24,000 nucleotides of DNA from an uncultured Actinomycetota bacterium (GTDB lineage: Bacteria > Actinomycetota > Actinomycetes > Mycobacteriales > Micromonosporaceae). The translations under genes and the position numbers were made by a program. Shown one piece after another: positions 9,901 through 24,000 of the stretch. Positions within the stretch are counted from its first letter, which is position 1; every line of letters begins with the position of its first letter. The stretch spans positions 324,448-348,447 of the forward strand of contig CAVUNP010000007.1 in NCBI GenBank assembly GCA_963742855.1, given 5' to 3'. The notes beneath the pieces are model-generated. The model was not told the DNA's origin, ran no database searches, and worked only from the letters and a program-made list of their open reading frames with translations.

Positions 9901-10898
9901 TCTCCGCATACAAGATGTGGAAGAAGGCAGTCAACGTCGCCGAATCAGTCATCCGACGAGCCGACGACGCCATGGCCTTCGCCGAAAACAAGTTCGACAA
10001 CGCACTCAAACTCTTCAACGACAGCAAGTCAGCCAAAGCCCCGAAGCGCAACCTGGACGCCCCCGACCGCCCCAACGCCCGACAACCCGCCGGTCCAGGT
10101 AACAGCTGCCATAGCTTCGATCCCGCAACCAAGGTCCTCATGGCGGATGGCTCGACGAAGGCCATCCAGGACATCAAGGTCGGCGACGAGGTAACCGCCA
10201 CAGACCCGGAGACCGGCGAGACCACTGCCCGCAAGGTCACCGCACTGCACGTCAACGTGGACACCGAGCTAGCCGATATCACCATCGTCGCCGAAGACGG
10301 TGTCGAAGCGACGCTGAAGACGACGCAGAACCATCCCTTCTGGGAGGCGACGGACGGCACCTGGATGGATGCCGGCGATCTGCAGCCCGGCGACACCCTT
10401 CAGGGCGTCAGCGGCGCCAACGCGGCCGTGGCTGCGACCGTTAGCCGTACAGGCAACACGGTCATGCGGGACCTCACCGTCGCCGACATCCACACGTACT
10501 ATGTGATCGCCGGCAACACGCCAGTCCTCGTCCACAACTCTGGTGGTGAGCCTGGACCTGGGCAGATCTACCTATGGCGGGCAGTGCTTCAGCCGGAACT
10601 GGAAGCCATTCAGTCAGGACGAACGTTTGCGAATCCACCGGGAATCGAAACGAAGTACTTCTCATATTCCGAGCGAGGGGCGGCCGAGTTTGCCAAGCGG
10701 ATGTATGGGCAGTTTCCGAACGAAGGTCCATACTCGATTGTGCGCACCGCTATCAACGTTGCAGATATTCCCGATGGAAGCGTCCTGCCGCATGTATCGG
10801 ACGTTGTGGACGGTGGGGTTGCGCTCCCTTCGGACACGCTCGACAAGCTCGGCCGGCCACGGATTATGCCGGGCATGAGTACCGGCATTGGGTGCTGA
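3942..10898 (+). CDS. Rhs/YD-repeat polymorphic toxin: signal/anchor, SpvB-like region, RHS shell, pretoxin linker, PT-HINT, C-terminal toxin CT1
   Basis: 2,318-aa ORF with a GTG start. N-terminus has RRHRRRG, a hydrophobic stretch and AVA|FP. SpvB/TcdB-like segment (NWSYPMQTPPSLGGPSPALSLAYSS). Many YD repeats (YDGLGRLTQV, FDGVGRATA, YDLLGRPVSG, YNDYGDLVKV, YDALGRKQTL, YDNLRRLTEA, YDADGNRLL). RHS-associated core end: GAREYDPTIGRFISADP...YAYASNNPTSMSDATGL. Confidence 0.95.
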   Translation: MSESVVIQPPPARRHRRRGVIALAAVIPLVLVSTLLSPLPAVAFPPKPADPPSLNHDKRVEGGDVATRKPVAPDRAPQFVPRAPVWPEASSGEVATDARLGVRADGSDIAGGAANAGVPIPVRVANSPVWIDTTPKTLGAEVAAGRVPGKVRVQVFDHDTATRAGVDATLVRVSRSDGVAEAGPAVVSVDYSAFAGAYGGGWADRLRLVAMPACALTDPTEAECRVGAPVVAANNVGASTITAKVSLPVGSAGLLLALDAGSSGGSGSTAATSLQASAAWSAGANTGEFNWSYPMQTPPSLGGPSPALSLAYSSGSVDGRTPAQNAQPSWIGEGFEFGPGGFIERKFVPCAKDLSAGANNTAQVGDLCWQTRDGAVAENLTMSLGGRGGELIRDPSNPNRWYPRANDGSLVQRRTGGPYGDFWVVTTTDGTQYWFGGRSGSNGAFTVPVYGNHVGEPCRAATFATSGCDQIYRWNLDYVIDPHGNTMTYTYVTEANSYAAAANPNVLKSYVRGGYLASIGYGTRVGSAGPAPMQVTFEVADRCVTNCWSGSNPVTANWSDTPWDQRCVATPCDDFSPAFYTSKRLSKVTTWLQAGGAPQPTPVEEWTLHHGYPLPGDGTRPGLFLERISHVGKVGTTTSVPDVLFEAQAMPNRVLPNAGDGKPAMNWQRIKSIITEAGGKISVNYETPNCTSTSLPNMSALQDNNLRCFPVKWTNPDTGATTNEFFHKYVVSTVVNADPTGSGSPQVVTSYEYVGDPAWHYTDDDGLIQPDDKTWSVWRGYPTVRTIVGDPGDVHVVRTASESTFFQGMHGDKRPSGTLTKVMPAIDMNGDGDTVDVADVPATNDEDVFAGMVRRSVTLSGVGGVEVSSSASVPWQSAPIASRTINGVTVSSRHVATAASYGRTALDTDSGRRSAGWRTTSSTTTYDDFGMAVAAEDRGDDAVADDQTCRTIEFVRDASAITSADSSKWLMAFPKRVRDFAVSCATAAAGGLTEADIIADNVTLYDGQALGVPPTKGDVTQTRSLKTWNPATQTPTYQTTSSGTFDAYGRITQAFDIRGNSSTTAYTPSTGGPVTGVTMTNHLGWQSSTTFEPAWGAALITTDANARSVKRTYDGLGRLTQVWQPSRGMDQSANTIYTYNLRNDAPSSVTTQALLPNGGYRSTFQIFDALLRPRQTQADNAFEPGRIVSDTFYDSAGRPYLANSPYWAPDAAGTTLFEPSVADADDIPLQTKTLFDGVGRATAAITLSLGVEKWRTLTTYGGDRTDTRPPQGGTAYSTVTDASGKTTELRTYRGATPSGAYDTTTYTYNRKGQQTRVIDAQNKHWDTSYDLLGRPVSGVDPDKGTTTSEYNDYGDLVKVTDERGEVLVLTYDALGRKQTLRDDSTTGAKRSEWVYEGIPDSRGMLTKSIRWNGSEEFSTEVIDFNADYMPSRVAYNIPTSTAFPGLAGSYTYQFTYASNGAPKTMTMPDVDGSSGLPAEQLTTGYNDYGAATTLQTNYEMGTQLNTYVTGTVYTGYGEIDKITLKNGTSPQAYIQYGYEDDTRRLKQITTSRDVLPKVVSDIQYVYDDAGNTTKIKDAAAAPNDVQCFTYDNLRRLTEAWTPATDNCQAAPSAATLGGPSKYWTAWDIDITGNRTKQIDHATPLGDRTTDYIYAGANSHQLMQTTTVDSSGTKTANYGYDVTGNTVSRPGASPATNQILNWNAEGQLSSVTEGAATTSFLYDADGNRLLRKDATGTTLYLPGQEVRLTGTGSKLNTRYYTHAGVTVATRAAGTLNWLSSDQHGTTNVTINKSGTQTTSVRRETPYGLARDTVGTWPANMDKGFVGGTKDSTGLTHLGAREYDPTIGRFISADPLVDFSNPQQMQGYAYASNNPTSMSDATGLMVYDEDRAFRGCDSACVDLNIAYAQREQAQKEKTEAQQVKTKSIKDIIIEAGVSFLLDMFGITDIWNCISKGDIGACVNALIGALPWGKVLGAAKAIWKGIDRALSAYKMWKKAVNVAESVIRRADDAMAFAENKFDNALKLFNDSKSAKAPKRNLDAPDRPNARQPAGPGNSCHSFDPATKVLMADGSTKAIQDIKVGDEVTATDPETGETTARKVTALHVNVDTELADITIVAEDGVEATLKTTQNHPFWEATDGTWMDAGDLQPGDTLQGVSGANAAVAATVSRTGNTVMRDLTVADIHTYYVIAGNTPVLVHNSGGEPGPGQIYLWRAVLQPELEAIQSGRTFANPPGIETKYFSYSERGAAEFAKRMYGQFPNEGPYSIVRTAINVADIPDGSVLPHVSDVVDGGVALPSDTLDKLGRPRIMPGMSTGIGC
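9573..9587 (+). other. end of the RHS-associated core: DATGL variant of the DPxGL autoproteolysis-type motif
   Basis: NNPTSMS-DATGL lies directly after the YD-repeat shell, at the position where Rhs/TcC proteins carry PxxxxDPxGL. A function in cleavage is inferred from the family. Confidence 0.6.
10107..10538 (+). other. pretoxin HINT (PT-HINT, intein-like) domain of the Rhs protein
   Basis: Starts at Cys in NS-CHSFDPATKVLMADGSTKAIQDIKVGDEV and ends at DIHTYYVIAGNTPVLVHN, followed by Ser. This is the Hint-fold block A and block G pattern. No extein resumes after it, so it is a pretoxin domain, not a splicing intein. Confidence 0.85.
10491..10538. repeat. conserved 45-48 nt HINT-end handle (HTYYV.AG.TPVLVHN); copies at 10491, 14459, 16196 and 23949
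   Basis: cacacgtactatgtgatcgccggcaacacgccagtcctcgtccacaac recurs with few substitutions at the 5' edge of each orphan cassette (14459-14506, 16196-16240, 23949-23993). Sequence downstream of each copy is unrelated. Confidence 0.9.
10539..10895 (+). other. C-terminal toxin domain CT1 (~119 aa, family unassigned)
   Basis: Variable region after the VLVHN boundary: SGGEPGPGQIYLWRAVLQPELEAIQSGRTFANPPGIETKYFSYSERGAAEFAKR... It is visibly more AT-rich than the rhs core. I recognise no catalytic motif. Confidence 0.6.
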
Positions 10899-10915
10899 AC
10901 GTGGGAGACTTGCGA

Positions 10916-11398
10916 ATGGAATTCGTTATCGCATCCTCGGTGGAGCACAAGACTCGGCAACTAGCTGACCTGCTAGGACGGCTCCCAGGCGTTCGCTACC
11001 TGCGAGGGTCGGTGCCCGAAGTAGGCGAGGGCTGCGACGCTCAGATCATGCACTTCACCTTGGCTCACGACCGTTATGGCGGTAGACCGATAGTCGGTCA
11101 TTCCCAAGTCCTTCATAACGCACGTGGTGATGGCGCCCCGCTGATAATCGTGTCAACGCCGCCGCTTGAGTCCGGTGCCGGCAGGGGGTCGGACAGGGAT
11201 GCGGAAACCTCTACACATGTCGAGCGAATGATCGGCACGGCACTCAGTACCTGGGTTGCTTCCCTCGATTCGGCGCAGCAGGCTCGCACACTCTGTTGCT
11301 TGATCCATATTGAGGGGGCTGGACTCGATTTTGGGCCACCGACCGCTATGTTTCATGGGCTCGGAGATGCGATTCGACCCTATTTGGGTGCAGCATGA
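10916..11398 (+). CDS. putative immunity protein for CT1
   Basis: ATG at 10916 sits 9 nt after GGGAG and 18 nt after the rhs stop. 160 aa (MEFVIASSVEHKTRQLADLL...). Position directly after the toxin tip and AT-richer composition support the call. The track ORF 10574..11398 is the same frame extended back into the toxin. In-frame GTGs at 10892 and 10901 are alternative starts. Confidence 0.6.
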   Translation: MEFVIASSVEHKTRQLADLLGRLPGVRYLRGSVPEVGEGCDAQIMHFTLAHDRYGGRPIVGHSQVLHNARGDGAPLIIVSTPPLESGAGRGSDRDAETSTHVERMIGTALSTWVASLDSAQQARTLCCLIHIEGAGLDFGPPTAMFHGLGDAIRPYLGAA

Positions 11399-11473
11399 AT
11401 GGCGTGATGTTAAGGTAACTTTCTGTGATCATAGGACTCCGTTGTGCGCCGATGTGCGCGAGCGTTCGTGGCG

Positions 11474-11495
11474 GTTGCGGTCACGGTTGCTGTCA
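11474..11495. repeat. att-like tandem decamer S1 (GTTGCGGTCA cg GTTGCTGTCA); candidate attL of element 1
   Basis: Direct tandem decamers, preceded at 11443 by TGTGCGCC. Homologous to S4 across tgtgcgcc...tggcGGTTG..GTCAcgGTTG.TGTCA. Confidence 0.55.
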
Positions 11496-11833
11496 CATGA
11501 ATGAGATCTGCATCGATACGTGAATGCGCTCGCTCGGGGTCGTGATAGGTGTCGACCTATGCGGTCGTGGTGCACGTCGATGGCCCTGGCCGGTGGTTCG
11601 GTGGCGGGCCGCGTAGCGGTGCGGCGTCGATCCCCGGATGCACCCGCTCGCGTCGACCGGTGAGGGGATCGTCGCGACCCTTGTGGCGAGATCTTCGGTT
11701 CAACTGACTGGATGTCGTTGTGTCGCCGGCTTCTTGGCGTGCGCGCGTGGCCGTAGGCCTGAACGCGTGCGCGCCCGGCTTGCCGGGCGCTCTTGATAAG
11801 TCCTTTGTATAGCAAGTTTGAGCCAGCTTGCGA

Positions 11834-12364
11834 TCATGGTGGGGTCTGTCGGGGGGTTCGGGTGGTCTTGCGTCGGCCGGTCGGTGTCCGTGTGGTCTGT
11901 CGGTAGGCGGCGAGTTCGGCGAGTTGGTCGAGGTGGTCGGCGAGGGCGTCGGCGTAGTCCTGGCGGGCGCGTTTGAGGGCGTGCACGTCGCCGCTGGCGC
12001 GTGCTTGGGTCAGAGCCTGGGTTCGGGTGGCCAGTGTGGTGTCGAGGCGGGCTTGTTCGCGGTCGTGGGTGGCTTGGTCGGTGATCGGTACGACGGCGGG
12101 TTGCTGCTCGGCGTTGCGTAGCCGGGCGACGGCGGTGGGGTGTACGTAGGTGCCACGTCCTTGGATGGCGTAGATGAGGCCCTGGTTCTGTAGCTCGCGC
12201 AGGGCGCGTTGGGCGGTCATCTGGGCGATGCCGTAGGTCTCGGCGATCTGGTTGGCCGAGGGCACCTGTGCCTCCGCTTGGAGTCGGCCGCTGCGGATCT
12301 GGTCGCGGATGTCATCGACCACGCGCTGGAACAGTGCGCGTCGGTCGTCCGGACTGTGGGCCAC
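11834..12364 (-). CDS. GntR-family winged-helix transcriptional regulator (Kor-like)
   Basis: The N-terminus LFQRVVDDIRDQIRSGRLQAEAQVPSANQIAETYGIAQMTAQRALRELQNQGLIYAIQGRGTYV is the GntR HTH signature. The gene is divergent from xis-int and paralogous to 17414..17899. Confidence 0.85.
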   Translation of the reverse strand: MAHSPDDRRALFQRVVDDIRDQIRSGRLQAEAQVPSANQIAETYGIAQMTAQRALRELQNQGLIYAIQGRGTYVHPTAVARLRNAEQQPAVVPITDQATHDREQARLDTTLATRTQALTQARASGDVHALKRARQDYADALADHLDQLAELAAYRQTTRTPTGRRKTTRTPRQTPP

Positions 12365-12427
12365 ACCCCGGAGCCTACGCGGTGGCTCGCCGGGACAGGT
12401 AGCGCGACATGGCTTGACATCCTAACC

Positions 12428-12462
12428 ATGCTAGGTAAGCTCGCAGCACGGTTACCTAGCAT
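12428..12462. promoter_or_regulatory. perfect 11-bp inverted repeat (ATGCTAGGTAA n13 TTACCTAGCAT) in the GntR/xis divergent region; candidate operator
   Basis: Seen directly in the sequence. TTGACA lies at 12414-12419 just upstream, and a third partial copy (ACCTAG) at 12463-12468. A regulatory role is inferred. Confidence 0.45.
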
Positions 12463-12486
12463 ACCTAGTAAAGGAAGGATCTGGGG

Positions 12487-12687
12487 ATGAACGATCACGA
12501 CCAACCGGCCGGTGCGTTGTTGACAGTGCCGGAGGTGATGGCCCGGTTGCGGGTCGGCAGGCATGCCGTGTACGCGCTGATCCGTGCTCGGCGGCTGGCG
12601 TCGCTGCGTATCGGGCGGGCCCGGCGGGTGCCGGTGGCTTCGGTGGAGACGTTCCTGGCGGAGCAGTTGGAGGAGGGGAGCTTGTGA
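12487..12687 (+). CDS. xis: excisionase-family HTH DNA-binding protein (Xis)
   Basis: 66 aa. LLTVPEVMARLRVGRHAVYALIRARRLASLRIGRARRVPVASVETFL matches the MerR-like excisionase fold signature. RBS GGAAGGA upstream. The stop overlaps the int start (GTGATG). Confidence 0.85.
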   Translation: MNDHDQPAGALLTVPEVMARLRVGRHAVYALIRARRLASLRIGRARRVPVASVETFLAEQLEEGSL

Positions 12688-13955
12688 TGGCCCGACGCAG
12701 AGGTAACGGTGAGGGCACAGTGTTCCAACGCGGCGACGGTAGGTGGGAAGCGGCCGCCTACGTCCGACAGCCCGACGGCACCCGCCGGCGGGTCTACCGG
12801 TACAGCGCCACCCGGCAGGCGGGTATGGACCAACTCGCCGCGCTGCGCGACCGTGACGCGCGGATGGCGCCGCTGACGGTCACCTCGTCGACGACGGTGG
12901 GCGAGTACCTGACCGTGTGGCTGGAGCAGGTCGCGGTGCACGCGGTGCGGCCGACGACCTGGATCTCCTATCGGCACGCCGTGCAGCGGTATCTGATCCC
13001 CGGCCTGGGTCGGCGGCGGCTGGCGTGGCTGACCACCAAGGAGGTCCGGGTGTGGCTGGCCGAGGTCGCCACCACCTGCCAGTGCTGCCGCCAGCACATC
13101 GACGCCCGACGAGCGATCGGGAAGCGGCGCTGCTGCGATGTCGGCGCCTGCTGCGGTCGGCGGGTCGCCCCGACCACGCTGCGCTACCTGCGGGCACTGC
13201 TGTCCTCGGCGCTGGCCCACGCGGTGCGCGAGGACGACCTACCTCGCAACGTCGTCTCCGCCGTCCGGCTACCCGTGCCGAGCCGATCGGCCTTCACCCC
13301 GCTCACCGCCGACGAGGCCCGCCGCGTCCTGGCCGCGGTTTCGGATCATCCGCTGCACGCGCTGTTCGAACTCGCCGTCCGGATCGGGCTGCGCCGGGGC
13401 GAGCTGCTCGGTCTGCGGTGGGTCGACCTTGACGAGCATGCGGGGCTGCTCACCGTGCGGCAGAGCGTGCAACGCCGCCGCGACACCGGCGCCATCATCG
13501 TCCTGCCCACCAAGACGACCGCCTCGCACCGGCGCATCCCCGTCCCCGCCGAGGCCATCCAGGCGATGCAAGAACAACGAGAGCGGCAACGCCAGCAACG
13601 CGCCGAGGCTGGACAGCGATGGCAGGACAGTGGACTGATCTTCACCCACAGCCTCGGCGGGCCGCTCGACCCCGGCGCGGTCAACCGGGCCTTCGCCACC
13701 ATCTGCGACCAGGCCGGAGTCCGCCGAGCCAGGTTCCACCTGCTCAGACACACCTGCGCCAGTCTCCTGCTGGAACAGGGCGTCGAGCTGGTCACCATCT
13801 CCCACCTGCTAGGCCACTCACGCCTCGGCGTCACCGCCGACGTGTACGCCCACGTCCGAGTCCGCCTGCAACGCGGCGCCGTCGACGCCATCGGCCACGC
13901 CCTCAACCGATCCGACGACGCGGAAGACGACCCACCCCTGCCCGTCGCAGCCTGA
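12687..13955 (+). CDS. int: tyrosine site-specific integrase
   Basis: 422 aa. GEGTVFQRGDGRWEAAAYV N-terminus. Catalytic region ...RFHLLRHTCASLLLEQGVELVTISHLLGHSRLGVTADVYAHV (the R...HxxR...Y pattern). Cys-rich insert at 13077-13154. Confidence 0.92.
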   Translation: MARRRGNGEGTVFQRGDGRWEAAAYVRQPDGTRRRVYRYSATRQAGMDQLAALRDRDARMAPLTVTSSTTVGEYLTVWLEQVAVHAVRPTTWISYRHAVQRYLIPGLGRRRLAWLTTKEVRVWLAEVATTCQCCRQHIDARRAIGKRRCCDVGACCGRRVAPTTLRYLRALLSSALAHAVREDDLPRNVVSAVRLPVPSRSAFTPLTADEARRVLAAVSDHPLHALFELAVRIGLRRGELLGLRWVDLDEHAGLLTVRQSVQRRRDTGAIIVLPTKTTASHRRIPVPAEAIQAMQEQRERQRQQRAEAGQRWQDSGLIFTHSLGGPLDPGAVNRAFATICDQAGVRRARFHLLRHTCASLLLEQGVELVTISHLLGHSRLGVTADVYAHVRVRLQRGAVDAIGHALNRSDDAEDDPPLPVAA

Positions 13956-13971
13956 ACCCATCCGGTGAAAC

Positions 13972-14003
13972 GCGCCCCTCGGACCATCCCGGCCGAGGGG
14001 CGC
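13972..14003 (+). terminator. hairpin downstream of int (11-bp perfect stem GCGCCCCTCGG / CCGAGGGGCGC, 10-nt loop)
   Basis: Located 17 nt after the int stop. No U-tract, which is common in high-GC actinomycetes. An analogous hairpin lies downstream of int2 at 22630-22669. Confidence 0.5.
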
Positions 14004-14107
14004 CGCCGTGCCCGGACCAGTCGCCCGACCGTTGAACTCGTCGAAGGCCGCCCTTACCATCCGCAGCACACCGCAGCCGACATCCACACCGTCATCACCG
14101 GAGCACC

Positions 14108-14893
14108 ATGACCTCCCAGCACCCGCCGGAGCGACCCAGCACGCGCCGCTCGGCGCCGGTCGAACCGGCCCGGAAGCCGGTCCCCGTCGGCCATCGACGT
14201 CCCGCGATCGCTAGACGGTCAGCCCGCCTGCGACCAGGGGTGTTTGGCCTGGTCGTCGCCCTGTCCACTGTGGCCGGCTGGCTATTTTCATCAACGTCGA
14301 TGGTATGGCTTGGGTCACAGCTGCTGTTCCCTGACGTTGCGGTCACCGCTGATGTCAGCCTCGGCAATACGGACACGGTCGATCTACTCGAATATCGCGT
14401 TTCCGCGGGTCACAGCCGCGGCCCACCAGCGAACGTCGATGAACCAAGGTCAACGCAGCACACGTACTATGTGATAGCCGGCACCACACCGGTCCTCGTA
14501 CACAACTGCGGAAACGAGATCGGAAAACAGGTCGATCCGTTCGACGGGGGCGATCTCAACAACGCGGTGCACAATCAAAGACTCGCGGATGGCGCCCGTG
14601 GGCGAGGCGGAAACTATGGAGCGGCGCGTCTGGACGATGGCTCAATCATCACTGGAAGATCCGGTGCGAATTGGCATGCGGAGGATGATCTCATAAACCA
14701 GGCCGGCGACCGAGGGATTGTCGACCTCTACACAGAACGCGCTCCTTGCGCAGCGAGTTGTCAAGGAAAGCTGGGCGGAGTGAATGTGACGTGGGCGTTC
14801 CCGTGGAATGGGTCGAACGCCGCAGAAACAGCCGCGATTAGAGCGGCCTCCAGCGGCGGTATTAAGAGCTACATTAGAGCTCTTTTTGGGTAG
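14108..14893 (+). CDS. orphan Rhs toxin cassette CT2: HINT-end handle fused to a nucleic-acid deaminase-like toxin domain; the upstream part of the ORF is probably fortuitous
   Basis: HTYYVIAGTTPVLVHN|C at 14459-14509. The toxin domain (14507-14890) carries WHAEDDL (14672-14692) and ERAPCAASC (14735-14761), the HxE...PCxxC zinc-deaminase signature. Residues 1-117 derive from the high-GC right arm of element 1. Confidence 0.8.
   Translation: MTSQHPPERPSTRRSAPVEPARKPVPVGHRRPAIARRSARLRPGVFGLVVALSTVAGWLFSSTSMVWLGSQLLFPDVAVTADVSLGNTDTVDLLEYRVSAGHSRGPPANVDEPRSTQHTYYVIAGTTPVLVHNCGNEIGKQVDPFDGGDLNNAVHNQRLADGARGRGGNYGAARLDDGSIITGRSGANWHAEDDLINQAGDRGIVDLYTERAPCAASCQGKLGGVNVTWAFPWNGSNAAETAAIRAASSGGIKSYIRALFG
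14336..14357. repeat. att-like tandem decamer S2 (GTTGCGGTCA cc GCTGATGTCA); candidate attR of element 1
   Basis: The first decamer is identical to that of S1. It lies 101 nt upstream of the HINT-end handle of the deaminase cassette. Confidence 0.55.
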
Positions 14894-14915
14894 GCTGACG
14901 GAACAGGAGATGGCC

Positions 14916-15452
14916 ATGCTCGCGACGAACCCATTGCCCTGGCCCCGTTTTGTTTTGAGGCGAATAGAATGCCCGGCTAACACGCCAGATGCGGCTCGGC
15001 GCGCGCTGGACATGCATCGGGTACCTGAGCGAGGCGTTGGAGGCGAGTTCGTCGCGTTCGAGGCGGCAGCATTTCTCGATGGTCACGCGAACCTACTCGC
15101 CTTGGGGCGAAGCGGACTCAGTGGCCGTGTCTGCCTGGATGTTGCGGCGCTCGAGGTCGTACACGTTCCATCGCCTAACGTTCCGAGGATCAATCCGGTA
15201 AACTCGGGCCTGGCGGCGTTCGCCGCTTGCGTAGGGATTGCGATTTCTCGTTTCCCCTATTACTCCTACGAATCAGCCGACGAACTTTCCGAGGGAGTCG
15301 CTAGCTATCTTCGGGGCCAACTCCTGGCAGCCGACCCCGTAGTTGGAGCGCACAACGGTTTATGGGAAACGTTTCTTGATGATGTGACCATGGGAAACTA
15401 CGCGGAAGAAGAATTCGAGCAGATATCGGCCCGTGGCGGCGAGATAACGTAG
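14916..15452 (+). CDS. putative immunity protein for the deaminase toxin CT2
   Basis: ATG at 14916 is 6 nt after GGAG (alternative ATG at 14910), 23 nt after the toxin stop. ~178 aa, AT-richer. The track ORF 14808..15452 is the same frame extended into the toxin gene. Confidence 0.65.
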   Translation: MLATNPLPWPRFVLRRIECPANTPDAARRALDMHRVPERGVGGEFVAFEAAAFLDGHANLLALGRSGLSGRVCLDVAALEVVHVPSPNVPRINPVNSGLAAFAACVGIAISRFPYYSYESADELSEGVASYLRGQLLAADPVVGAHNGLWETFLDDVTMGNYAEEEFEQISARGGEIT

Positions 15453-15559
15453 CGCCAAAAGATGCCATCTGGCGCGATGAGTTCTGGTTCTGCCCGCAAC
15501 GGCCGCGCTACTCTCCGTGCCCGCAGTGTGGCCGTGTGCGCCGGGTTGCGTGGCTACTT

Positions 15560-16019
15560 GGCCGAGGTCGGGCACACCGACACGTGGCTGCGCCAGATCA
15601 TCGTCACCGACCCCGCCAGTGGCGAGCAGGTTCTGCTCGACCTCGGCCAGGACTACCGGCAACACCCGCCCATCGTCGTCACCGGCCTCGGCCCGGTCAT
15701 CGACCTGCCCGACGCCGCCGCCTCCAAGGCCCGGGCTCTCAACGACCGGCGAGCCGTCCGCGACTACCTCGACCTGCACGCCCTGCTCACCCAACCCGGC
15801 TGGAGCCCGGCCCGGCTGTTCGCCGCGCTGCGAGACAACCTGCGGCCCGTACTCACCGCCGAAGAGTTCGCAGCCGACCTGGCCGCCGCCGGCCAACAGG
15901 ACCCTGAGGACTACCACGCGTACCGCCTCACCGACGCCGACATCGGCCGGCTCGCCGCCGACTTCACCCGCTGGGCCGACGACCTCAGAACCCAACACAT
16001 CGACACCCATCACGAGTAA
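15560..16019 (+). pseudogene. 5'-truncated abiEii-type nucleotidyltransferase gene (remnant of a deleted element)
   Basis: Colinear with residues ~73-225 of the 23095..23772 product (AEVGH(T/S)DTWLRQIIVTDPA...RTQHID). It lacks the N-terminal GGG...DLD nucleotidyltransferase motif. Homology begins abruptly at ~15560, just after a TGTGCGCC box (15535). Confidence 0.85.
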
Positions 16020-16069
16020 AACGGGGAAAGTCGATGGTGTGGCGGGGGTCACCGGCGACGTACGCTGAG

Positions 16070-16540: not shown

Positions 16541-16541
16541 C

Positions 16542-17899: not shown

Positions 17900-17914
17900 G
17901 ACCGCACGATAGCA

Positions 17915-18011
17915 GTCACGTGACACGCATGCGACCCGACACCCACGGCACGGCAGTCCAAAGAATCTTGCGGTTCGCGCTTGACCATAGCACGAGTGTC
18001 ACGTCACACTC
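17915..18011. promoter_or_regulatory. divergent kor/tra control region with two GTCACGT-centred palindromes
   Basis: GTCACGTGAC (17915-17924) is a perfect 10-bp palindrome. GAGTGTCACGTCACACTC (17994-18011) has 6-bp inverted arms. TTGACC lies at 17981. An operator role for the GntR protein is inferred. Confidence 0.4.
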
Positions 18012-18379
18012 GGGACATACGTTGCTCGCGGTTGGCGTGGGCACGGACAGGAGACAAGTATGTTGATTCTTCCGATCGAAAGCCGCCCGCTGCTGGTGGT
18101 CGCCCCCCACCGGCACCGCAGTTCACCGACCGGCAGCGCACGCAGTCGAAGGTGGACCGGGACACCGGCGTGCCAGTGGTCGAGGTGGCCGTCTGCTTGA
18201 CCACCGACGGTGGTCAGCCGCAGATGTTGCGGGTGCAGCTGCCGGCCACCGGCATCCCCAAGGATCTGGCCGTCGGGCAGCAGGTGACGGCGTCGGGTCT
18301 CACTCTCATGGTGGGTGAGACGAATGGCCGGTCGTGGCAGATGTTCCGGGCCGCGTCGGTGACGGCGGTGAAGTCATGA
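17981..18379 (+). CDS. hypothetical small protein translationally coupled to traB (start unresolved)
   Basis: The stop overlaps the traB ATG (ATGA at 18376-18379), which supports this frame. The maximal ORF starts at a TTG inside the presumed promoter. In-frame GTGs lie at 18152, 18170 and 18185. A canonical AGGAG-n6-ATG at 18049-18062 is in a different frame. Confidence 0.45.
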   Translation: MTIARVSRHTRDIRCSRLAWARTGDKYVDSSDRKPPAAGGRPPPAPQFTDRQRTQSKVDRDTGVPVVEVAVCLTTDGGQPQMLRVQLPATGIPKDLAVGQQVTASGLTLMVGETNGRSWQMFRAASVTAVKS

Positions 18380-19860
18380 TGGCGCACCTTCCGGCTTGGC
18401 TGCTGCTGCTACCGCTCGTCGTTCTCGCGGCGGCAGTCCTGGTCGTGACCGTCCGGCTGGGCTGGGCTGGCGTCGAGTACGTGCGGGCAGCGCCTGGCGT
18501 GCGGCCGATGCTACGTCGGGCTTGGCGCATCCGCGCGACGTGGCCACGGACGGCGCGTCGGGTCGGGCTCGTCCACACGGAACGGGCCACGCCGCCATGG
18601 TGGTCCACCGCCAAGCCCACCACCGCCCACGCGTCGACGAGGACATTGGTGCCGCCGGTGCAAGTCCGGGCGGATCGGTGGGGTGTGATGGTCGTCGCGG
18701 CGACGGTGGGTCGGATCGGGTTGGTGGAGTTCCAGAACGCCGCCCGGCATCTGGCCGACGCCTGGTACGTCCCGACCGTCCGCGTCACCCAGCCCAAGGC
18801 CGGCGTGGTCCGGCTCCGAGCACTCGTGCTCGACCCTCTTACCGAGCCACTCCATTGGACGGAGCGTGATCTGGTCGGCGACGCCAACACCTGGGTCGCC
18901 GGTATAGACCAGGACGGCCAGCCGGTGACGATCCGCACCGCCGACGTGTCCGGAGTCGTCGTCGCAGGGTTGGCGGGCTATGGCAAGACGGTGTTCCTTA
19001 ACGCCCGCCTGGCCGCCCTCGCACCCGACGAGGCGGTGCAGTTCGTGCTCATCGACGGCAAAGGCGGACCCGACTACGACGACCTGTTCACCCGCGCCTG
19101 GCTGTCGGCCAAGGACGACCCGGACCTGGTCCGCGACCACCTGGCGACGGTGCACCAATTGATGAAGGTTCGGCAGGACACCATCAGGCCGGTGCTGGGG
19201 GTGAAGAACGTGTGGCAGGTCGGCCCGTCCGCGTCCTGGCCCCTTGTGCTGGTGGTCATCGACGAGGCGCATACCTTTCTCAATGAGCACAAGGGCACCG
19301 ACCCGGACTCGAAACGCCGCGACGCCCTGGCGAGGGAGACGGTGCGGCTGGTGGAGGAGTTGGTGCGTAAGGGCCGCAACGTCGGCATCCAGGTCGTGCT
19401 GGCGACGCAGAAGCCGACCGGGGACGCGATCCCGACCCGGATCCGGGACAACTGCCAAGTGTCGCTGTCGTTCGCGCAACGCACGTCCGAGGCGGCCGTC
19501 GCGGTCCTCGGCGCTGACATCACCGACTGGCCCGACGAACACCCCCGTCGCCTGGTCGATCCGGCCTACGTCGGGGTGGCGTCGATGGTCGCCCAGGGCC
19601 GACCCGGGTTCACCCTCGTCCGCACCCCGTATGTCCCGGATGGCGTGGCGGATGGATGTGCTCGGCGTGGCGCGCACCTGGTCCGCGATCCGGTCGAGCT
19701 ACAAACGTTGATGTGTACGTCACCCGGGACCAGCCAGACGGTTGGATCTTGGGAGGAGAGCGGCGGCCCATTCCGCCAAGAACAATCCGCCGCTCTCCGC
19801 GACACCAACCCCGACCTGATGGAAGGAGTCAGTAGACACGATGATGTCATCCGATCCTGA
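18376..19860 (+). CDS. traB: FtsK/SpoIIIE-family DNA translocase (TraB-like conjugation protein)
   Basis: N-terminal TM helix (LPAWLLLLPLVVLAAAVLVVTV). Walker A GLAGYGKT (18967-18990). Walker B LVLVVIDEAH (~19243-19272). The start at the 18376 ATG is coupled to the upstream ORF. Confidence 0.88.
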   Translation: MMAHLPAWLLLLPLVVLAAAVLVVTVRLGWAGVEYVRAAPGVRPMLRRAWRIRATWPRTARRVGLVHTERATPPWWSTAKPTTAHASTRTLVPPVQVRADRWGVMVVAATVGRIGLVEFQNAARHLADAWYVPTVRVTQPKAGVVRLRALVLDPLTEPLHWTERDLVGDANTWVAGIDQDGQPVTIRTADVSGVVVAGLAGYGKTVFLNARLAALAPDEAVQFVLIDGKGGPDYDDLFTRAWLSAKDDPDLVRDHLATVHQLMKVRQDTIRPVLGVKNVWQVGPSASWPLVLVVIDEAHTFLNEHKGTDPDSKRRDALARETVRLVEELVRKGRNVGIQVVLATQKPTGDAIPTRIRDNCQVSLSFAQRTSEAAVAVLGADITDWPDEHPRRLVDPAYVGVASMVAQGRPGFTLVRTPYVPDGVADGCARRGAHLVRDPVELQTLMCTSPGTSQTVGSWEESGGPFRQEQSAALRDTNPDLMEGVSRHDDVIRS

Positions 19861-21103
19861 TGAAGGCAGCAGCGCCACCCCGACCGTCGAGGCGCTGCTG
19901 CGAGTCGATGAGCACCAGGCTGCCGTGAGACGGCTTGGCCCGTGCGTGCGCCCGCTTCGCACCTTCTACGACGGCACGGTGGTGGTGATGCGGTGCCGCA
20001 ACCGGCGCGCCGCCGTGTGCCCGTCGTGCTCGGCGCTGTACCGGCTCGACGCCCGGCAGCTTCTCACGGCTGGCCTGGTCGGCGGCAAGGACACCCCGGC
20101 GAGTGTCGCGGGCCGGCCGCGGGTGCTCGTGACGTTGACCGCGCCGTCGTTTGGGAAAGTCCACACCGGACAGACCGGAGGTCGGCCCAGGAGGTGTCAC
20201 CCGACCTGCGGTGCTTGGCATCCGGCCGGTGACCGCATCCTGGGCACGGCGCTCGACGTCGAGCAGTACGACTATGTCGGGCAAGTCTTGTTCAACGCCC
20301 ACGCCGGCGCGTTGTGGGCCGCGTTCACGACCACGACTCGCCGCACGCTCGCCGCCGACGGCGGGCTGTCGAGGGCGGAGGCGGGTCGTCGGGTGCGGGT
20401 GGTGTTCGCGAAGGTGGCCGAGTTCCAGACCCGGGGCGTGGTGCACCTGCACGCCGTCATCCGCCTCGACCCGGTCCACCCACCCGACCGGCCGGCCTGG
20501 GCCAGCGTGGCGGTGCTGCGGCGGGTGGTGCGGCGGGCGGCCAGAACCACGCGGGTCACGACGCTGGCGTCCTCCGGGTCGCCGGGCCGCAGGTTGCGGT
20601 GGGGTCGGCAGGTCGACGTGCGCCCGATCACCACCGGCTCGGCGCAGGCGAGTGTGGCGGTGGTGGCCCGCTACATCGCGAAGTACGCGACCAAGGCGGC
20701 CGAGACCGCTGGACTGAACCTCGGCCCGATCGCGTGCCCGGCATGTGCGGCGACCGGGGCGACGACTCTCGCACCGGGGATGGTGCGGCTGTGTCGGGAC
20801 TGTCACGGCACCGGCCGGCGCGCAAGCGTCGACCTGGATCGGCTCACCGCCCATGCCCGTGCACTGGTCGAGACCTGTTGGCGGCTCGGCGCCCGGCCGG
20901 AGTACGCGCCGCTGCGCCTGCGCCAGTTTGCCCATCAGGGCGGCTACCGGGGTGTGTTCCTCACCAAGTCGCGGACCTGGTCGACCACGTTCGCCGCCCT
21001 GCGCGCCGAGCGGTACGCCTTCCTCGAAACCCAACGCACCGGCGACGCGGCACCGCCCGGCAGTGTCGTGAATGGACGGAGCATCAACGACCACCCCGCC
21101 TAA
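19841..21103 (+). CDS. rep: RepSA-like replication initiator protein
   Basis: 420 aa. Hallmarks of actinomycete plasmid/AICE initiators: RCRNRRAAVCPSCSALYRLDARQL, LVTLTAPSFGKVH, RGVVHLHAVIRLD, YIAKYATK. Overlaps the traB end by 20 nt. Confidence 0.85.
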   Translation: MMSSDPDEGSSATPTVEALLRVDEHQAAVRRLGPCVRPLRTFYDGTVVVMRCRNRRAAVCPSCSALYRLDARQLLTAGLVGGKDTPASVAGRPRVLVTLTAPSFGKVHTGQTGGRPRRCHPTCGAWHPAGDRILGTALDVEQYDYVGQVLFNAHAGALWAAFTTTTRRTLAADGGLSRAEAGRRVRVVFAKVAEFQTRGVVHLHAVIRLDPVHPPDRPAWASVAVLRRVVRRAARTTRVTTLASSGSPGRRLRWGRQVDVRPITTGSAQASVAVVARYIAKYATKAAETAGLNLGPIACPACAATGATTLAPGMVRLCRDCHGTGRRASVDLDRLTAHARALVETCWRLGARPEYAPLRLRQFAHQGGYRGVFLTKSRTWSTTFAALRAERYAFLETQRTGDAAPPGSVVNGRSINDHPA

Positions 21104-21290
21104 CCACCCACCGGACCCGGCTGAGCCGGATCTGTTGACGGTGGTGCAGGTGATGGCCCGGCTGCAGTTGGGCCGGCACACCGTCTACGACCTGATCCGC
21201 AGCCGTCGGTTGCGGTCCGTCCTGATCGGACGGTGCCGACGCATCCCGGCCGTTGCCTTGCGCGACTTCCTCGACTCCCTCACCGACTGA
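21072..21290 (+). CDS. xis: excisionase-family HTH DNA-binding protein (Xis)
   Basis: LLTVVQVMARLQLGRHTVYDLIRSRRLRSVLIGRCRRIPAVALRDFL parallels Xis of element 1. The start is uncertain because the ORF overlaps the rep end. Confidence 0.8.
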   Translation: MDGASTTTPPNHPPDPAEPDLLTVVQVMARLQLGRHTVYDLIRSRRLRSVLIGRCRRIPAVALRDFLDSLTD

Positions 21291-21307
21291 ACCCGAAGGA
21301 CTTTGTG

Positions 21308-22714
21308 ATGCCTGGAAAGAAGAATGCCAACGGCGATGGCACCGTGTTCCAACGCGCCGACGGCCGCTGGTGCGGCGCCGCCTACGTGACCGTCGCGGAC
21401 GGGACGTCTCGGCGGGTGTTCGTGTACGGCGACACCCACCGCGAAGCCTCCGACAAGCTGGCCGCGAAGATCGCCGATAGCGTGCGCGGCACCGCCGTGG
21501 TCGCCAAGGACCCTACGGTGACCGTGGGCGAGTACCTGACCTCGTGGCTGCAGACCGTCGCGAAGCCTAGGCTGCGGGCGACCACGTTTCGCACCTACGA
21601 GGCGATGACGACCCGCTTCCTGCTGCCCGGCCTCGGAGCGAAGCGGCTGGGGGCGTTGACGGTGTCGCAGGTGCGCGAGTTCCTCACCCAGGTCGCCGCG
21701 GCCTGCCAGTGCTGCGCCCGAGGCACCGACGCCAAACGCGACCCGAACCACCGCGACCCCGCTCGGCGGTCGCGTTGCTGCGCGGTCGGCCGCTGCTGTC
21801 ACACCACGGCCAGTCCGGCCACCGTCCGCTACATCCGCGCCCTGCTCTCGACCGCTCTCGCGGACGGAGTGCGCGAGGATCTGCTCGGCCGCAATGTCGC
21901 CGCCGCCGTCCGGCTGCCCTCCACCAGGGCCCGGTTCGAGCCGTTCACCGCCGCCGAGGCCCGCAAGTACCTACGCGCCGCCCGGCTGCACCGGCACGGG
22001 CCGCTGTTCGAACTCGCCCTGCGCACCGGGCTGCGCCAAGGCGAACTGCTCGGCCTGCGGTGGGCCGACCTGGACCTGGCCGCGGGCCACCTTACGGTGC
22101 GCCGCACCCTGGCCCGCACGCCGGGCGGAGCCACGTTCCAGGACGTGAAGACCCACCGATCCGCGCGGCGTATCAGCATCCCCGGCGAGTGCGTCACCGC
22201 GCTGCGCTGGTACCAACGCCGCCAAGACATCGACCGGCGCGAGGCGGGCCCGGTATGGCGGGATCTCGGGCTCGTGTTCACCCGCGCCACCGGTGGGCCG
22301 CTCGACGCCGCCTACGTGCACCGAACCCACCACCTGCTCTGCGACCTCGCCGACATCCGCCGGATTCGGTTTCATGATCTTCGGCACTCCGCGGCCACGC
22401 TCCTGCTGGAACAAGGGGTCGAGCTCATCGTGGTGAAGGATCTCCTCGGGCACGCTCAGATCAACACCACCGCCGACATCTACACGTCCGACTCCGCCTG
22501 CAACGCCAGGCGATCGAAGCCATGGGCGCTGCCCTCCGCGACGACCAGGCGGACACCGACGACGAGGGTCGCGATGATGAGGAGCCCGACGACCCGCCGA
22601 TCCTCGTCCCCGTCTGAACCGGACATCGAGGCGTCCCGCCACCGTTCACGCCCGGCGTGGCGGGACGCCATCTCGAGGCCGCGCAAGGCGTCGTGGCCGG
22701 GTCGTGGCCGGTAG
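21308..22714 (+). CDS. int: tyrosine integrase with a frameshifted C-terminus (possible pseudogene); the restored frame would stop at 22615-22617
   Basis: MPGKKNANGDGTVFQRADGRWCGAAYV parallels Int1, and the catalytic region RFHDLRHSAATLLLEQGVELIVVKDLLGHAQINTTADIY is intact. Straight after the Tyr codon (22481-22483) the Int1-like continuation HVRLRLQRQAIEAMGAAL...PPILVPV* is found in another frame. The track ORF start at 21233 overlaps xis. Confidence 0.85.
   Translation: MPGKKNANGDGTVFQRADGRWCGAAYVTVADGTSRRVFVYGDTHREASDKLAAKIADSVRGTAVVAKDPTVTVGEYLTSWLQTVAKPRLRATTFRTYEAMTTRFLLPGLGAKRLGALTVSQVREFLTQVAAACQCCARGTDAKRDPNHRDPARRSRCCAVGRCCHTTASPATVRYIRALLSTALADGVREDLLGRNVAAAVRLPSTRARFEPFTAAEARKYLRAARLHRHGPLFELALRTGLRQGELLGLRWADLDLAAGHLTVRRTLARTPGGATFQDVKTHRSARRISIPGECVTALRWYQRRQDIDRREAGPVWRDLGLVFTRATGGPLDAAYVHRTHHLLCDLADIRRIRFHDLRHSAATLLLEQGVELIVVKDLLGHAQINTTADIYTSDSACNARRSKPWALPSATTRRTPTTRVAMMRSPTTRRSSSPSEPDIEASRHRSRPAWRDAISRPRKASWPGRGR
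22630..22669 (+). terminator. hairpin (13-bp perfect stem GGCGTCCCGCCAC / GTGGCGGGACGCC, 14-nt loop) downstream of the restored int2 stop
   Basis: Begins 13 nt after the in-frame-restored stop at 22617, mirroring the hairpin after int1. It lies inside the frameshift-extended ORF. Confidence 0.5.
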
Positions 22715-22742
22715 ACTGCCCGGTGGAGGGAGGCTGCCGATC

Positions 22743-23078
22743 ATGTCGCGTCACTACGTCACCAACACCCCAGTGCTGGACCGGACCGCGAGCCGGCCGG
22801 TCGTCGTCGTGGACGATCTGACGCGCCTGCACGGCCCTTCGGGCGGCGTGGTGACCCTCCCCATCACGCTGAACTGGACCCCCCGCACCCGCTACGACCT
22901 GGCCACCGAAACCGCGGCCCGGTCGCTCTACCAGGTGGTATTGCGGGAAGCCCACACCGAGGCCGAGGTCGAGACCTATCTCAACGCCGACCTGCTGCGC
23001 CGGCTGTGGCCGTCGCTGACCCTGCCGAGGGCCGTGCGGGAGTTCTGGGAAGCCGCCCACCCCACCCTGGCCAACTGA
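22743..23078 (+). CDS. small protein upstream of the AbiEii-like nucleotidyltransferase; putative cognate antitoxin
   Basis: ATG at 22743 follows GGAGGGAGG. 111 aa. Ends 16 nt before the NTase gene. The pairing is inferred from position only. Confidence 0.5.
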   Translation: MSRHYVTNTPVLDRTASRPVVVVDDLTRLHGPSGGVVTLPITLNWTPRTRYDLATETAARSLYQVVLREAHTEAEVETYLNADLLRRLWPSLTLPRAVREFWEAAHPTLAN

Positions 23079-23094
23079 GCCAGCGGACGGGCTC

Positions 23095-23772
23095 GTGTCG
23101 TTCACCCCGTTCCAGCGCCTCATCGCCCAACACACCCTCGACGCGATCGCTGATCTCGGGTTCGCCCTCGGCGGCGGCCAAGCGTTGCACGCCCACGGCC
23201 TGGGTGACCGGCTCTCCCTTGACCTGGACTTCTACGTCACCCGCTTCGACCAAGACCTGTTCGACCGTGCCGAGACCGCCACCGTCACCGCCCTGCGCGA
23301 GCTTGGGTATCGGGCCGAGGTCGGGCACTCCGACACGTGGCTGCGCCAGATCATCGTCACCGACCCCGCCACCGGGGAGCAGGTCCTGCTCGACCTCGGC
23401 CAGGACTACCGCCAACACCCGCCCATCGTCATCACCGGCCTCGGCCCGGTCATCGACCTGCCCGACGCCGCCGCCTCCAAAGCCCGAGCTCTCAACGACC
23501 GGCGAGCCGTCCGCGACTACCTCGACCTGCACGCCCTGCTCACTCAACCCGGCTGGAGCCCGGCCCGCCTGTTCGCCGCGCTGCGGGACAACCTGCGGCC
23601 CGTCCTCACCGCCGACGAGTTCGCCGCCGACCTGGCCGCCGCCGGCCAACAAGACCCTGAGGACTACGACGCGTACGGCCTCACCGACACCGACATCGGC
23701 CGCCTCGCCGCCGACTTCACCCGCTGGGCCGACGAACTCCGAACCCAACACATCGACAACCATCATCAGTAA
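23095..23772 (+). CDS. AbiEii/AbiGii-type nucleotidyltransferase (type IV toxin-like, DUF1814-like)
   Basis: GTG start. 225 aa. The N-terminal FALGGGQALHAHGLGDRLSLDLDFYV fits the minimal nucleotidyltransferase motif hGG...D.D. The assignment is from recall of the family pattern, not from a search. Confidence 0.65.
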   Translation: MSFTPFQRLIAQHTLDAIADLGFALGGGQALHAHGLGDRLSLDLDFYVTRFDQDLFDRAETATVTALRELGYRAEVGHSDTWLRQIIVTDPATGEQVLLDLGQDYRQHPPIVITGLGPVIDLPDAAASKARALNDRRAVRDYLDLHALLTQPGWSPARLFAALRDNLRPVLTADEFAADLAAAGQQDPEDYDAYGLTDTDIGRLAADFTRWADELRTQHIDNHHQ

Positions 23773-23822
23773 ATCGGAGGCTGTCGATGGTGTGCCGTGG
23801 GTCACCGGCGACGTGCGCTGAG

Positions 23823-23844
23823 GTTGATGTCAGCGTTGATGTCA
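23823..23844. repeat. att-like tandem decamer S5 (GTTGATGTCA gc GTTGATGTCA); candidate attR of element 2
   Basis: Identical to S3 and differs from S4 only in the 2-nt spacer. Lies 104 nt upstream of the next handle. Confidence 0.6.
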
Positions 23845-23942
23845 AACCACCACCCCGCGCCAGCAACCACACATCGCCGTAACGGCAACAGTTGCGACTG
23901 AAAGGATCCAGGACATGAGACATCCACGACCGCCATAGCTGA

Positions 23943-24000
23943 AACCAAACCTACTATGTGGTGGCCGGCCACACGCCGGTCCTGGTCCACAACACCAACG
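23943..24000 (+). CDS. 5' end of a third orphan toxin cassette (CT4), truncated by the window edge
   Basis: The frame opens after TGA (23940-23942): NQTYYVVAGHTPVLVHN|TN... The toxin domain itself is not visible. Confidence 0.6.

Follow-up and report, generated by a model that had tools for sequence, protein, structure and literature searches.

The window analysed here (the whole stretch of 24,000 nt, positions 324,448 to 348,447 of contig CAVUNP010000007.1, assembly GCA_963742855.1, from an uncultured actinomycete of the Micromonosporaceae) carries an Rhs polymorphic toxin locus in which displaced toxin ends alternate with integrase modules resembling the integrative and conjugative elements of actinomycetes (AICEs). 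Its GC content is 65.6%. The full-length Rhs gene occupies positions 3942–10898 of the + strand, is intact over its 2318 codons, and matches the Pfam profiles RHS_repeat, SpvB and PT-HINT. All the features of an Rhs polymorphic toxin system are found by Pfam and from the repeats described below, namely RHS repeats, a PT-HINT domain, a variable tip, an immunity gene and orphan modules. The PT-HINT profile ends at about position 10541, and the last 16 codons of this domain form a 49-nt segment, here called the handle, that encodes HTYYVxAGxTPVLVHN. Four copies of the handle, sharing 76–90% identity over the 49-nt repeat, start at 10491, 14459, 16193 and 23946. The open reading frame (ORF) of the Rhs gene runs unbroken through the first of them into the tip that it now carries, and the displaced ends start exactly at the handle.

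Each handle leads into a tip (CT), followed by its immunity gene (imm), all on the + strand. Handle H1 (HTYYVIAGNTPVLVHN, 10491–10539), proposed as the identity segment of an attachment (att) site and as attL of the first unit described below, precedes cassette 1 (10540–11398), which is made of CT1 (10540–10898) and imm1 (10916–11398). This cassette, with a GC content of 0.59 against 0.69 for the adjoining element, is a candidate cargo of that element. Handle H2 (14459–14507), putatively attR of the first unit and attL of the second, precedes cassette 2 (14508–15452), in which Pfam identifies an XOO_2897-type deaminase tip (CT2, to 14893) and a SUKH-4 immunity protein (imm2, 14910–15452). Handle H3 (QTYYVVAGDTPVLVHN, 16193–16241) precedes cassette 3 (16242–16919), with CT3 (to 16540) and imm3 (16542–16919), neither of which has a Pfam match. 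Finally, handle H4 (23946–23994) and the start of CT4 are cut off by the window edge at 24000.

Between these cassettes lie two elements and the scar of a third, with genes assigned by Pfam. Element 1 (11834–13955) consists of a GntR regulator (11834–12364, − strand), an HTH_17 excisionase (xis, 12487–12687) and the integrase int1 (12684–13955); it has no rep or tra gene and is, therefore, defective or merely mobilisable. Element 2 (17414–23772) is a complete AICE with GntR (17414–17926, − strand), an additional ORF (17981–18379), FtsK/TraB (18334–19860; FtsK_SpoIIIE, E=5e-10), RepSA (19841–21103; E=1.6e-101), xis (21072–21290), int2 (21233/21308–22714), a putative AbiEi partner (22743–23078) and AbiEii (23095–23772). 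In both elements, a tyrosine integrase (Phage_integrase, Phage_int_SAM_3) stands next to an HTH excisionase (HTH_17), and RepSA together with an FtsK/SpoIIIE-type TraB is found in element 2 and not in element 1. The scar (15532–16192, + strand) belonged to an element of the second type: a remnant of arm boxes (15532–15554) is joined to the interior of abiEii (to 16019), which is followed by a decamer pair and a spacer termed X2 (16092–16192). A truncated AbiEii ORF (15462–16019) matches the C-terminal part of the family in Pfam, and positions 15548–15847 are 94% identical to 23301–23600. At the deletion joint itself (15532–15560), the boxes (ending in GCGTGGC) meet abiEii (beginning TACTTGGCC) with a microhomology of 3–4 nt, and the deletion starts exactly where a decamer pair would be expected to start. 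No tRNA gene or Rfam match was found in the window, and the flanks of the elements are Rhs handles, so these are not insertions at a tRNA 3′ end.

The modules are bounded by five tandem decamer pairs, all on the + strand: S1 at 11474 (GTTGCGGTCACGGTTGCTGTCA), S2 at 14336 (GTTGCGGTCACCGCTGATGTCA), and S3 at 16070, S4 at 17029 and S5 at 23823, which are exact or near-exact copies of GTTGATGTCAnnGTTGATGTCA. As an earlier, sequence-only reading of this DNA had it, the pairs enclose two integrase modules and one scar between toxin/immunity cassettes; more precisely, they bound the GntR-xis-int module, the abiEii scar and the complete AICE. No pair arose in any of 100 shuffles of the window, with zero expected by chance, and single decamers with at most one mismatch occur 15 times against 2.4 expected. 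The claim that a pair lies about 100 nt upstream of the handle also holds, since at S2, S3 and S5 the handle starts exactly 123 nt after the start of the pair. Within the pair, the two decamers (the decamer of arm pairs is also written GTTGNTGTCA) are separated by CG in the attL copies and by CC or GC in the attR copies. The TGTGCGCC box reported by the same reading fared less evenly. It does occur three times (11443, 15535 and 17008), 45, 83 and 89 nt past immunity-gene stops, and it belongs to a module of about 30 nt made of GTGCGC-like boxes with a 10-nt period, located at the scar and immediately to the left of S1 and S4, but the 8-mer alone is not significant, as 35 of the 100 shuffles reach three copies.

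Taken together, these motifs delimit an arm at each end of each element, all on the + strand. The P′ arm of element 1 (11443–11495) has the boxes GTGCGCCGAT, GTGCGCGAGC and GTTCGTGGCG followed by S1 (11474–11495), and its P arm (14290–14458), recognised by a conserved block and by the kept distance from pair to handle, has the block GTCGATGGTATGGC..GGGTCAC, S2 (14336–14357) and a 101-nt spacer termed X1. In element 2, repeat scans define a P′ arm (17008–17090) with the box, S4 (17029–17050) and an inverted decamer-like site (17081–17090, − strand); the decamer scan and the conserved block define its P arm (23783–23945), with that block, S5 (23823–23844) and spacer X2. The scar retains S3 (16070–16091), found by the decamer scan. 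Two other accounts of these stretches were considered and set aside. The pair reads VDVSVDV in frame with the handle and might have been a leftover of HINT coding sequence, an idea that was dropped when pairs were found at tRNA-integrated relatives; a search for a short core hidden in the spacers, comparing the zone from imm stop to box with that from pair to handle, gave only chance matches of 6–8 nt.

The pairs are not peculiar to Rhs loci. A scan of one genome per species with a slightly degenerate form of the pair found at least 122 pairs in at least 120 loci of Actinomycetota, Chloroflexota, Firmicutes and other phyla. For 31 of the 122 pairs listed, a tRNA gene lies 38–90 nt downstream, always on the opposite strand, so that its 3′ end faces the pair; ten tRNA species are represented. 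Among the matches listed, many pairs are on the same strand as an int1/int2 homologue and sit just past its stop codon. Two sequence contexts (numbered L020 and L100; other contexts are numbered likewise) have at their attL end the 3′ half of tRNA-Phe, terminating in the anticodon loop; about 80 nt further on come the TGTGCGCC box and the pair, in a module like the P′ arm of element 1. In a free circular Streptomyces plasmid of 14.3 kb (NZ_CP108973.1, L144), GTTGATGTCA pairs lie on both sides of a tRNA 3′ half beside int. This layout of arm repeats flanking an identity segment is that of the attP of pACPL and pSAM2, where two tandem-repeat arm-type sites bind Int (PMC3364876), and in the window a pair likewise stands at each end of both elements. 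Since the same pair is found at ten tRNA species in several phyla and in the attP of a free plasmid, the decamer pairs are best read, by sequence, as element-borne arm-type integrase sites of the pSAM2/pACPL kind and not as the crossover site. An arm pair just inside each integrated end would look like a bounding direct repeat, which also explains the spacer difference between attL and attR. The sequence-only reading had recognised that a common dispersed repeat would undermine it; the pair is indeed common in other genomes, but there it marks element ends and is not dispersed.

By analogy with pSAM2 and pACPL, it is proposed that the N-terminal domain of the integrase binds the decamers. In PDB searches, the nearest enzymes are lambda, Tn1549 and Xer-type, with only a weak match to IntI4, and the catalytic and core-binding parts match lambda Int (1z1b, E=2e-7). 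The arm decamer GTTGCTGTCA also occurs in tandem with a 12-nt period, often after GTCCGCnnnn repeats, beside related integrases in L003–L122. It is kept in Chloroflexota, Actinomycetota, Firmicutes and Acidobacteriota, a breadth that is unusual for an arm site.

A different picture is obtained from the close relatives of the window integrases, which were fetched with their flanks. Elements bearing an int1- or int2-like integrase comprise the two in the window, ten elsewhere with at least 63% identity to int2, and one with 65% identity to int1 (L007, L123, L125, L128, L131, L132, L133, L136, L140, L141 and L142 in addition to the window). In 13 of 13, one end shows the pair, a spacer of about 100 nt, the handle and a CT. 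The other end, where visible, has the order Rhs, handle, tip, imm, boxes, pair and GntR. Sources include Rhizomonospora, Actinoplanes cyaneus, Luedemannella and Micromonospora, and two more loci show a like anatomy with no integrase in view, one from Paractinoplanes (L094) and one from Micromonospora sp. LOL_023 (L066), the latter a gene-less mini-element. This integrase lineage is restricted, by the sequence contexts fetched, to Rhs/PT-HINT toxin loci rather than tRNA genes. The earlier proposal that the family uses a site within the cassette unit is upheld insofar as the lineage is dedicated to these loci; as set out below, the pair is neither the core nor part of the cassette.

The geometry of the P arm is strongly conserved. 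From the pair start to AC(N)TACTA there are 125–128 nt at 14 of 16 attR sites and 115/116 nt at the other two, although the spacer sequences are unrelated. The two classes differ by one helical turn, and such a constant distance is what arm-to-core geometry predicts. By contrast, the attL pair lies 780–1467 nt from the upstream handle, depending on cassette length. Spacer type follows the element on its left and not the tip on its right (X2 at S3 and S5 in the window and in L123 and L131; X1 at S2 and in L133 and L136), and the spacer is therefore assigned to the element. TACTATGTG is kept in 28 of 30 distinct handles, even though TAT makes up just 23% of Tyr codons in the window rhs gene. In every element-linked orphan, homology to the main gene begins at the CAC-ACG codon boundary. 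An element-free orphan in L123 (L123_b, handle at 4568) has an extra stretch of about 20 nt of HINT and lacks a pair, whereas the sequence-only reading had expected a pair at element-free junctions.

Some relatives are reduced or show further peculiarities. The gene-less mini-elements (L066 1806–2527; L128 13977–14566) measure 570–720 nt, keep both arm modules and have a tip/immunity cassette on their left; they look like non-autonomous units, comparable to miniature inverted-repeat transposable elements, that could be moved in trans by a related integrase. In L125, the handles at 4430 (main gene) and 12298 (attR) share an extra residue (YYV[IV]AAGVPVLVHN) with many synonymous differences. The element-borne handle seems to be matched to its target family.

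The extent of the mobile block is indicated by three contigs from sibling metagenomes (L135, L136 and L137), which share 3.46 kb of 100% identical sequence from the left handle to ...CACACCTACTA of the right handle. The block holds, in order, the handle, tip, imm, boxes, pair, a deleted GntR/int region, AbiEi, pair and spacer. Its ends, at the handles, lie 780 nt outside the left pair and 126 nt outside the right one. On its upstream side, the contigs differ in their rhs/HINT sequence (100 nt compared, 62% identity); on its downstream side, three different tips follow, with L137 diverging directly past TACTA.

A mirror-image layout is found on two Streptomyces linear plasmids, L143 (NZ_CP108578.1) and L145 (NZ_CP108363.1), whose integrase is 53% identical to int2. 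Here, the HINT toxin gene and int converge, just as tRNA genes and int do, and the CT-imm cassette lies between the P-arm pair and the handle, in the position held by the tRNA 3′ half in relatives. At the opposite end, an orphan handle borders directly on the P′ arm and lies 90 nt from the pair, and L143 has a second element in tandem. The elements of the two plasmids are 85–88% identical and their rhs genes 77%, and their CT-imm cassettes are unrelated. Relative to this type, the window type looks as if its central handle-tip-immunity segment had been inverted between the arms.

These observations suggest that the handle is the att core and that each element carries a replacement tip and immunity gene, so that integration swaps the tip and orphans the old one; this mechanism is considered likely. 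On this view, accretion would have stacked three integrative units in tandem at the 3′ end of the Rhs gene: unit 1 at 10491–14458 (with the defective element), unit 2 at 14459–16192 (deleted from the P′ boxes into abiEii) and unit 3 at 16193–23945 (the full AICE, with its int frameshifted), the next tip starting at 23946. Each unit would be composed of a handle, a promoterless tip with its immunity gene, a P′ arm (GTGCGC-type boxes and pair), the element genes and a P arm (pair and spacer of about 100 nt), with gene order GntR, optionally orf-TraB-RepSA, then xis-int and optional cargo such as AbiE. The handle would be the identity segment, taking the role of the tRNA 3′ half, with the arm pairs inside each integrated end. 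In an integration event, the circular element would recombine its own handle with that of the Rhs gene, most probably within the invariant CAC-AC(G/C)-TACTATGTG block at the handle's 5′ edge, a position to which the junctions of L137 and of the Streptomyces plasmids point. The incoming tip, followed by its immunity gene, would join Rhs-PT-HINT in frame immediately ahead of the HN cleavage motif, and the previous tip and immunity gene would be left behind the element as an orphan. Repeated invasions and decay of older elements could then produce an orphan array that records serial insertions. We infer that the integrase catalyses exchange in the handle, at about this position, and elements of this kind may still be mobile. 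By comparison with L135–137 and the Streptomyces plasmids, cassette 1 is probably cargo of element 1, and the cassettes in the window would have arrived with their elements.

Several observations weigh against this mechanism. No circular form, empty site or excision junction of any Rhs-type element was found among the fetched contexts; the small contigs L131 (8.9 kb), L132 (11.9 kb), L141 (10.2 kb) and L142 (10.2 kb) have no terminal overlap and are integrated or interrupted by an insertion sequence (IS) or intron, and a scan of viral contigs with int2 gave no match. The copies in the window may themselves be immobile, given that element 1 has no rep or tra and that int2 is frameshifted. The frameshift (window 22455–22720) is due to a 4-nt deletion, GCCC by comparison with int1, directly past the catalytic Tyr codon, and the conserved tail HVRLRLQRQAIEAMG... 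runs on in another frame; an identical sequence in the independent Logan contig L002 indicates that the deletion is real. In the window type, the P′ arm sites lie 0.8–1.5 kb from the proposed core, compared with about 250–400 bp in a classical attP, so a DNA loop would be needed. No arm-binding domain was identified by Pfam and PDB sequence searches in the roughly 70 N-terminal integrase residues. The handles of the attL and attR of one element often share only runs of 5–8 nt outside TACTATGTG, and their mosaics leave the crossover ambiguous between the 5′ edge and a place past the VV codons. Elements with the X2 spacer and L125 have YYVV at attR in six of six cases, which fits either a crossover placed more to the 3′ side or a preference for certain targets. 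Unrelated cassettes are found in closely related elements, and the GC content of the cassettes is 0.55–0.59 against 0.69 for the backbone, so cassettes must be exchanged often. Finally, L135–137 are short-read metagenome contigs in which the pairing of left and right flanks could be chimeric, although the block boundaries would be unaffected. A Logan contig that starts exactly at GTACTATGT (L140) was considered as a possible attP/attL branch of the assembly graph, but its attR is unbroken.

The variety of the cassettes would also be explained if the elements integrated at the 5′ edge of an existing orphan handle without carrying any cassette, the left CT-imm being chromosomal and the arrays older than the elements. 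Under this account, the P′ arm would stand at a normal distance from a core located just past the immunity gene, the GC difference and the unrelated left cassettes of near relatives would be expected, and an element-free orphan such as that in L123 would have a natural place. Nevertheless, no handle or HINT remnant and no shared core lie between the imm stop and the boxes, and in L135–137 the left cassette is identical along with the element while the rhs gene upstream differs. In addition, the cassette of L143 and L145 is found within the element arms, and orphans equal elements or scars in number in the window, L066 and L128. Cassette-free integration is, on this evidence, unlikely.

Recombination of the RecA type between element-borne and rhs handles, with the integrase and arms being leftovers of a tRNA-targeting ancestor, was also weighed. 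The handle is a repeat of 49 nt with 76–90% identity, and the apparent junction within it varies, both between L135/L136 and L137 and in the YYVV pattern, as might be expected of such a process. However, efficient homologous recombination requires more than 49 nt at about 80% identity. A homologous route would also leave unexplained the constant distance from pair to handle at 16 sites with unrelated spacers, the sharp and constant 5′ boundary, the retention of xis-int in 13 elements, and the conservation of TACTATGTG at the nucleotide level, and we regard it as quite improbable.

The sequence-only reading itself took the pair, together with the TGTGCGCC box, for an attB/attP core present in every cassette, with integron-like integration between existing cassettes. 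The pairs are the sole obvious direct repeats that bound each integrase module, and the CG spacer of attL against GC or CC in attR could be taken to mean that the crossover lies left of the spacer. Even so, the pair is a direct repeat and not the inverted sites that the core of a tyrosine recombinase needs, and, as described above, it stands next to ten different tRNA species, and a free plasmid has it in its attP arms. It is absent from the element-free orphan, and terminal orphans have neither boxes nor pair (L066 after 3381, L123 after cassette c and L128 after 15387). Moreover, the block of L135–137 extends far past both pairs, and the right spacer follows element type. A core within the pair is thus very improbable. 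The integron-like logic fails with it because the cassettes lack their own bounding recombination sites, and of the two routes that had been suggested, conjugative delivery of new Rhs tips is the one favoured. Least credible of all is a single ancient insertion near rhs followed by vertical descent in Micromonosporaceae with no true Rhs target specificity: most Rhs-type loci do come from that one family, but rhs genes, tips, cargo and flanking genes differ among loci, single loci hold stacked elements, an identical block occurs in different contexts, and Streptomyces plasmids carry the mirror-image version.

The proposed system can be compared with several known ones. Like the AICEs pSAM2 and pACPL, the window elements combine a GntR regulator, an FtsK-like TraB, RepSA, an HTH excisionase and a tyrosine integrase next to att, and they share the identity segment between two arm sites made of a tandem 9–10-mer with a 12-nt period (PMC3364876; L144). 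They differ in their target, which is the last 16 codons of PT-HINT and not a tRNA 3′ end, and in holding about 1 kb of tip and immunity gene between the arms instead of a tRNA fragment of about 45 nt. In the AICE survey of Ghinet et al., nearly all tyrosine-integrase AICEs have tRNA targets. Accretion and decay of AICEs at hot spots, with different AICEs of one specificity stacked in tandem and defective AICEs that keep direct repeats, have been described (Choufa et al. 2022, PMC9513070), and element 1, the scar and the mini-elements of L066 and L128 fit such stacking and decay; the hot spots there are tRNA genes or rlmN, with no swap of a gene end. The window shows the replacement-end layout, in which one junction has an intact ORF and the other the original end, displaced. 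It recalls integration within the 3′ end of a protein gene with a carried substitute end, as in icd. Phage 21 and e14 integrate in the 3′ end of icd and bring a substitute 3′ end, so that the gene stays intact and its original end is displaced. In the present case, the substitute end would be a new toxin domain with an immunity gene, and it would change the phenotype rather than preserve it.

Among toxin systems, Rhs/CdiA orphan arrays and displacement of tips by homologous recombination have been described (Koskiniemi et al. 2014), and sequential displacement of toxin tip/immunity modules is described in V. cholerae (PMC5361080). The window has the same full-length gene followed by displaced modules with a short conserved upstream piece, but the displacement proposed here is site-specific and element-borne, homology ends at one fixed nucleotide, and an element or its remnant precedes each orphan. 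Integrons also have promoterless cassettes in one orientation next to a tyrosine recombinase. In contrast to them, the window has no attI/attC or attC-like inverted repeats; each cassette is followed by an element arm and has its own integrase module, of the lambda/pSAM2 type with arm sites. Beside Rhs or polyimmunity loci, genes for integrases or Xer enzymes have been noted, with a suggested role in the capture of toxin or immunity genes (Steele et al. 2017, PMC5727410; Zhang et al. 2012, PMC3482391), although these are cases from Proteobacteria for which no att sites, mechanism or element boundaries are given. A literature search on AICEs with polymorphic toxin, Rhs, HINT or attB found no description of such a system, in line with the earlier statement that no such system was known. 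The parts are known, namely the AICE backbone, arm-type sites, 3′-end integration in which a replacement end is brought along, and orphan arrays; the apparent novelty lies in how they are combined, with toxin tip and immunity gene within attP and PT-HINT as the target.

On balance, the findings lean towards a broader reading, in which a widespread lineage of actinomycete elements traded its tRNA target for the last 16 codons of PT-HINT and carries a tip and immunity gene inside attP. Conjugation followed by integration would then re-arm and immunise the recipient in one step, and orphan arrays would be a stratified record of invasion. The target-switched lineage would include conjugative, mobilisable and gene-less miniature forms in Micromonosporaceae, as well as the mirror-image form in Streptomyces. 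Tip exchange is thought to run by homologous recombination with silent orphan cassettes, and the entry of new tips into genomes is, to our knowledge, largely unexplained. If the reading is correct, a route of entry for new tips would be supplied, and the build-up of orphans in one orientation with a fixed 5′ boundary would be explained. Interbacterial warfare would also be linked to the selfish spread of mobile elements, as an element that turns its host against cells without it would be a mobile 'greenbeard'. In addition, this would be a natural, programmable system for in-frame swaps of C-terminal domains. A more general caution is that the direct repeats on either side of an integrated element can turn out to be arm sites and not the crossover site. 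The model is testable in culturable strains, for instance Actinoplanes cyaneus and Streptomyces goshikiensis NBC_01191.

Some further features of the junctions may bear on expression. An ORF at 14108–14893 begins within the right end of element 1, crosses the decamer pair (read as DVAVTxxV) and the spacer, and enters the handle and the displaced tip. Similar attR-spanning ORFs are found in L133 (about 2690–3150) and L136 (4262–4957). All have a basic N-terminus and a hydrophobic helix resembling a transmembrane segment, which is kept in the three independent elements although its sequence differs. Such an ORF could keep the displaced tip and its immunity gene expressed or, in the circular form, the tip of the element itself. 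In most other spacers (window 16150–16192 and 23903–23945; L123, L131, L128, L132, L007, L140, L141 and L142), an in-frame stop lies 2–4 codons before the handle, which may block read-through from the element into the displaced toxin. A conserved non-coding block between the P′ pair and GntR (window 11595–11851 and 17157–17412; L007 1–230; L066 1960–2150; L131 230–470) holds repeated GCGTGCGCGC motifs around GGCCGTAGGCCTGA, and may be an operator for the KorSA-like GntR, a promoter or a transfer locus.

The arrays also attract more mobile DNA, with a group II intron and various ISs in or next to arms and cassettes (L141 399–1862, L131 7502–8869, L132 454–3024, L140 7047–7889, L142 6026–7462 and L145 1214–3022). 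Beyond the window, the short contigs L001 and L002 (Logan) and L139 (ENA), from the source itself or a close relative, were all that exact protein look-up returned. One of them (L139, ENA ERZ25039496 contig_1287) is near-identical to positions 10514–16456, which span units 1 and 2, but its H2 reads AGDTP and not AGTTP; thus, a sister strain or population variant exists for comparison. Upstream of rhs, the gene at 133–3849 encodes a protein of 1238 residues with two Laminin_G_3 (concanavalin-like lectin) domains. The gene neighbouring the toxin locus in the Streptomyces plasmids encodes a ricin-type lectin protein, and toxin loci of this kind may regularly have a lectin partner.

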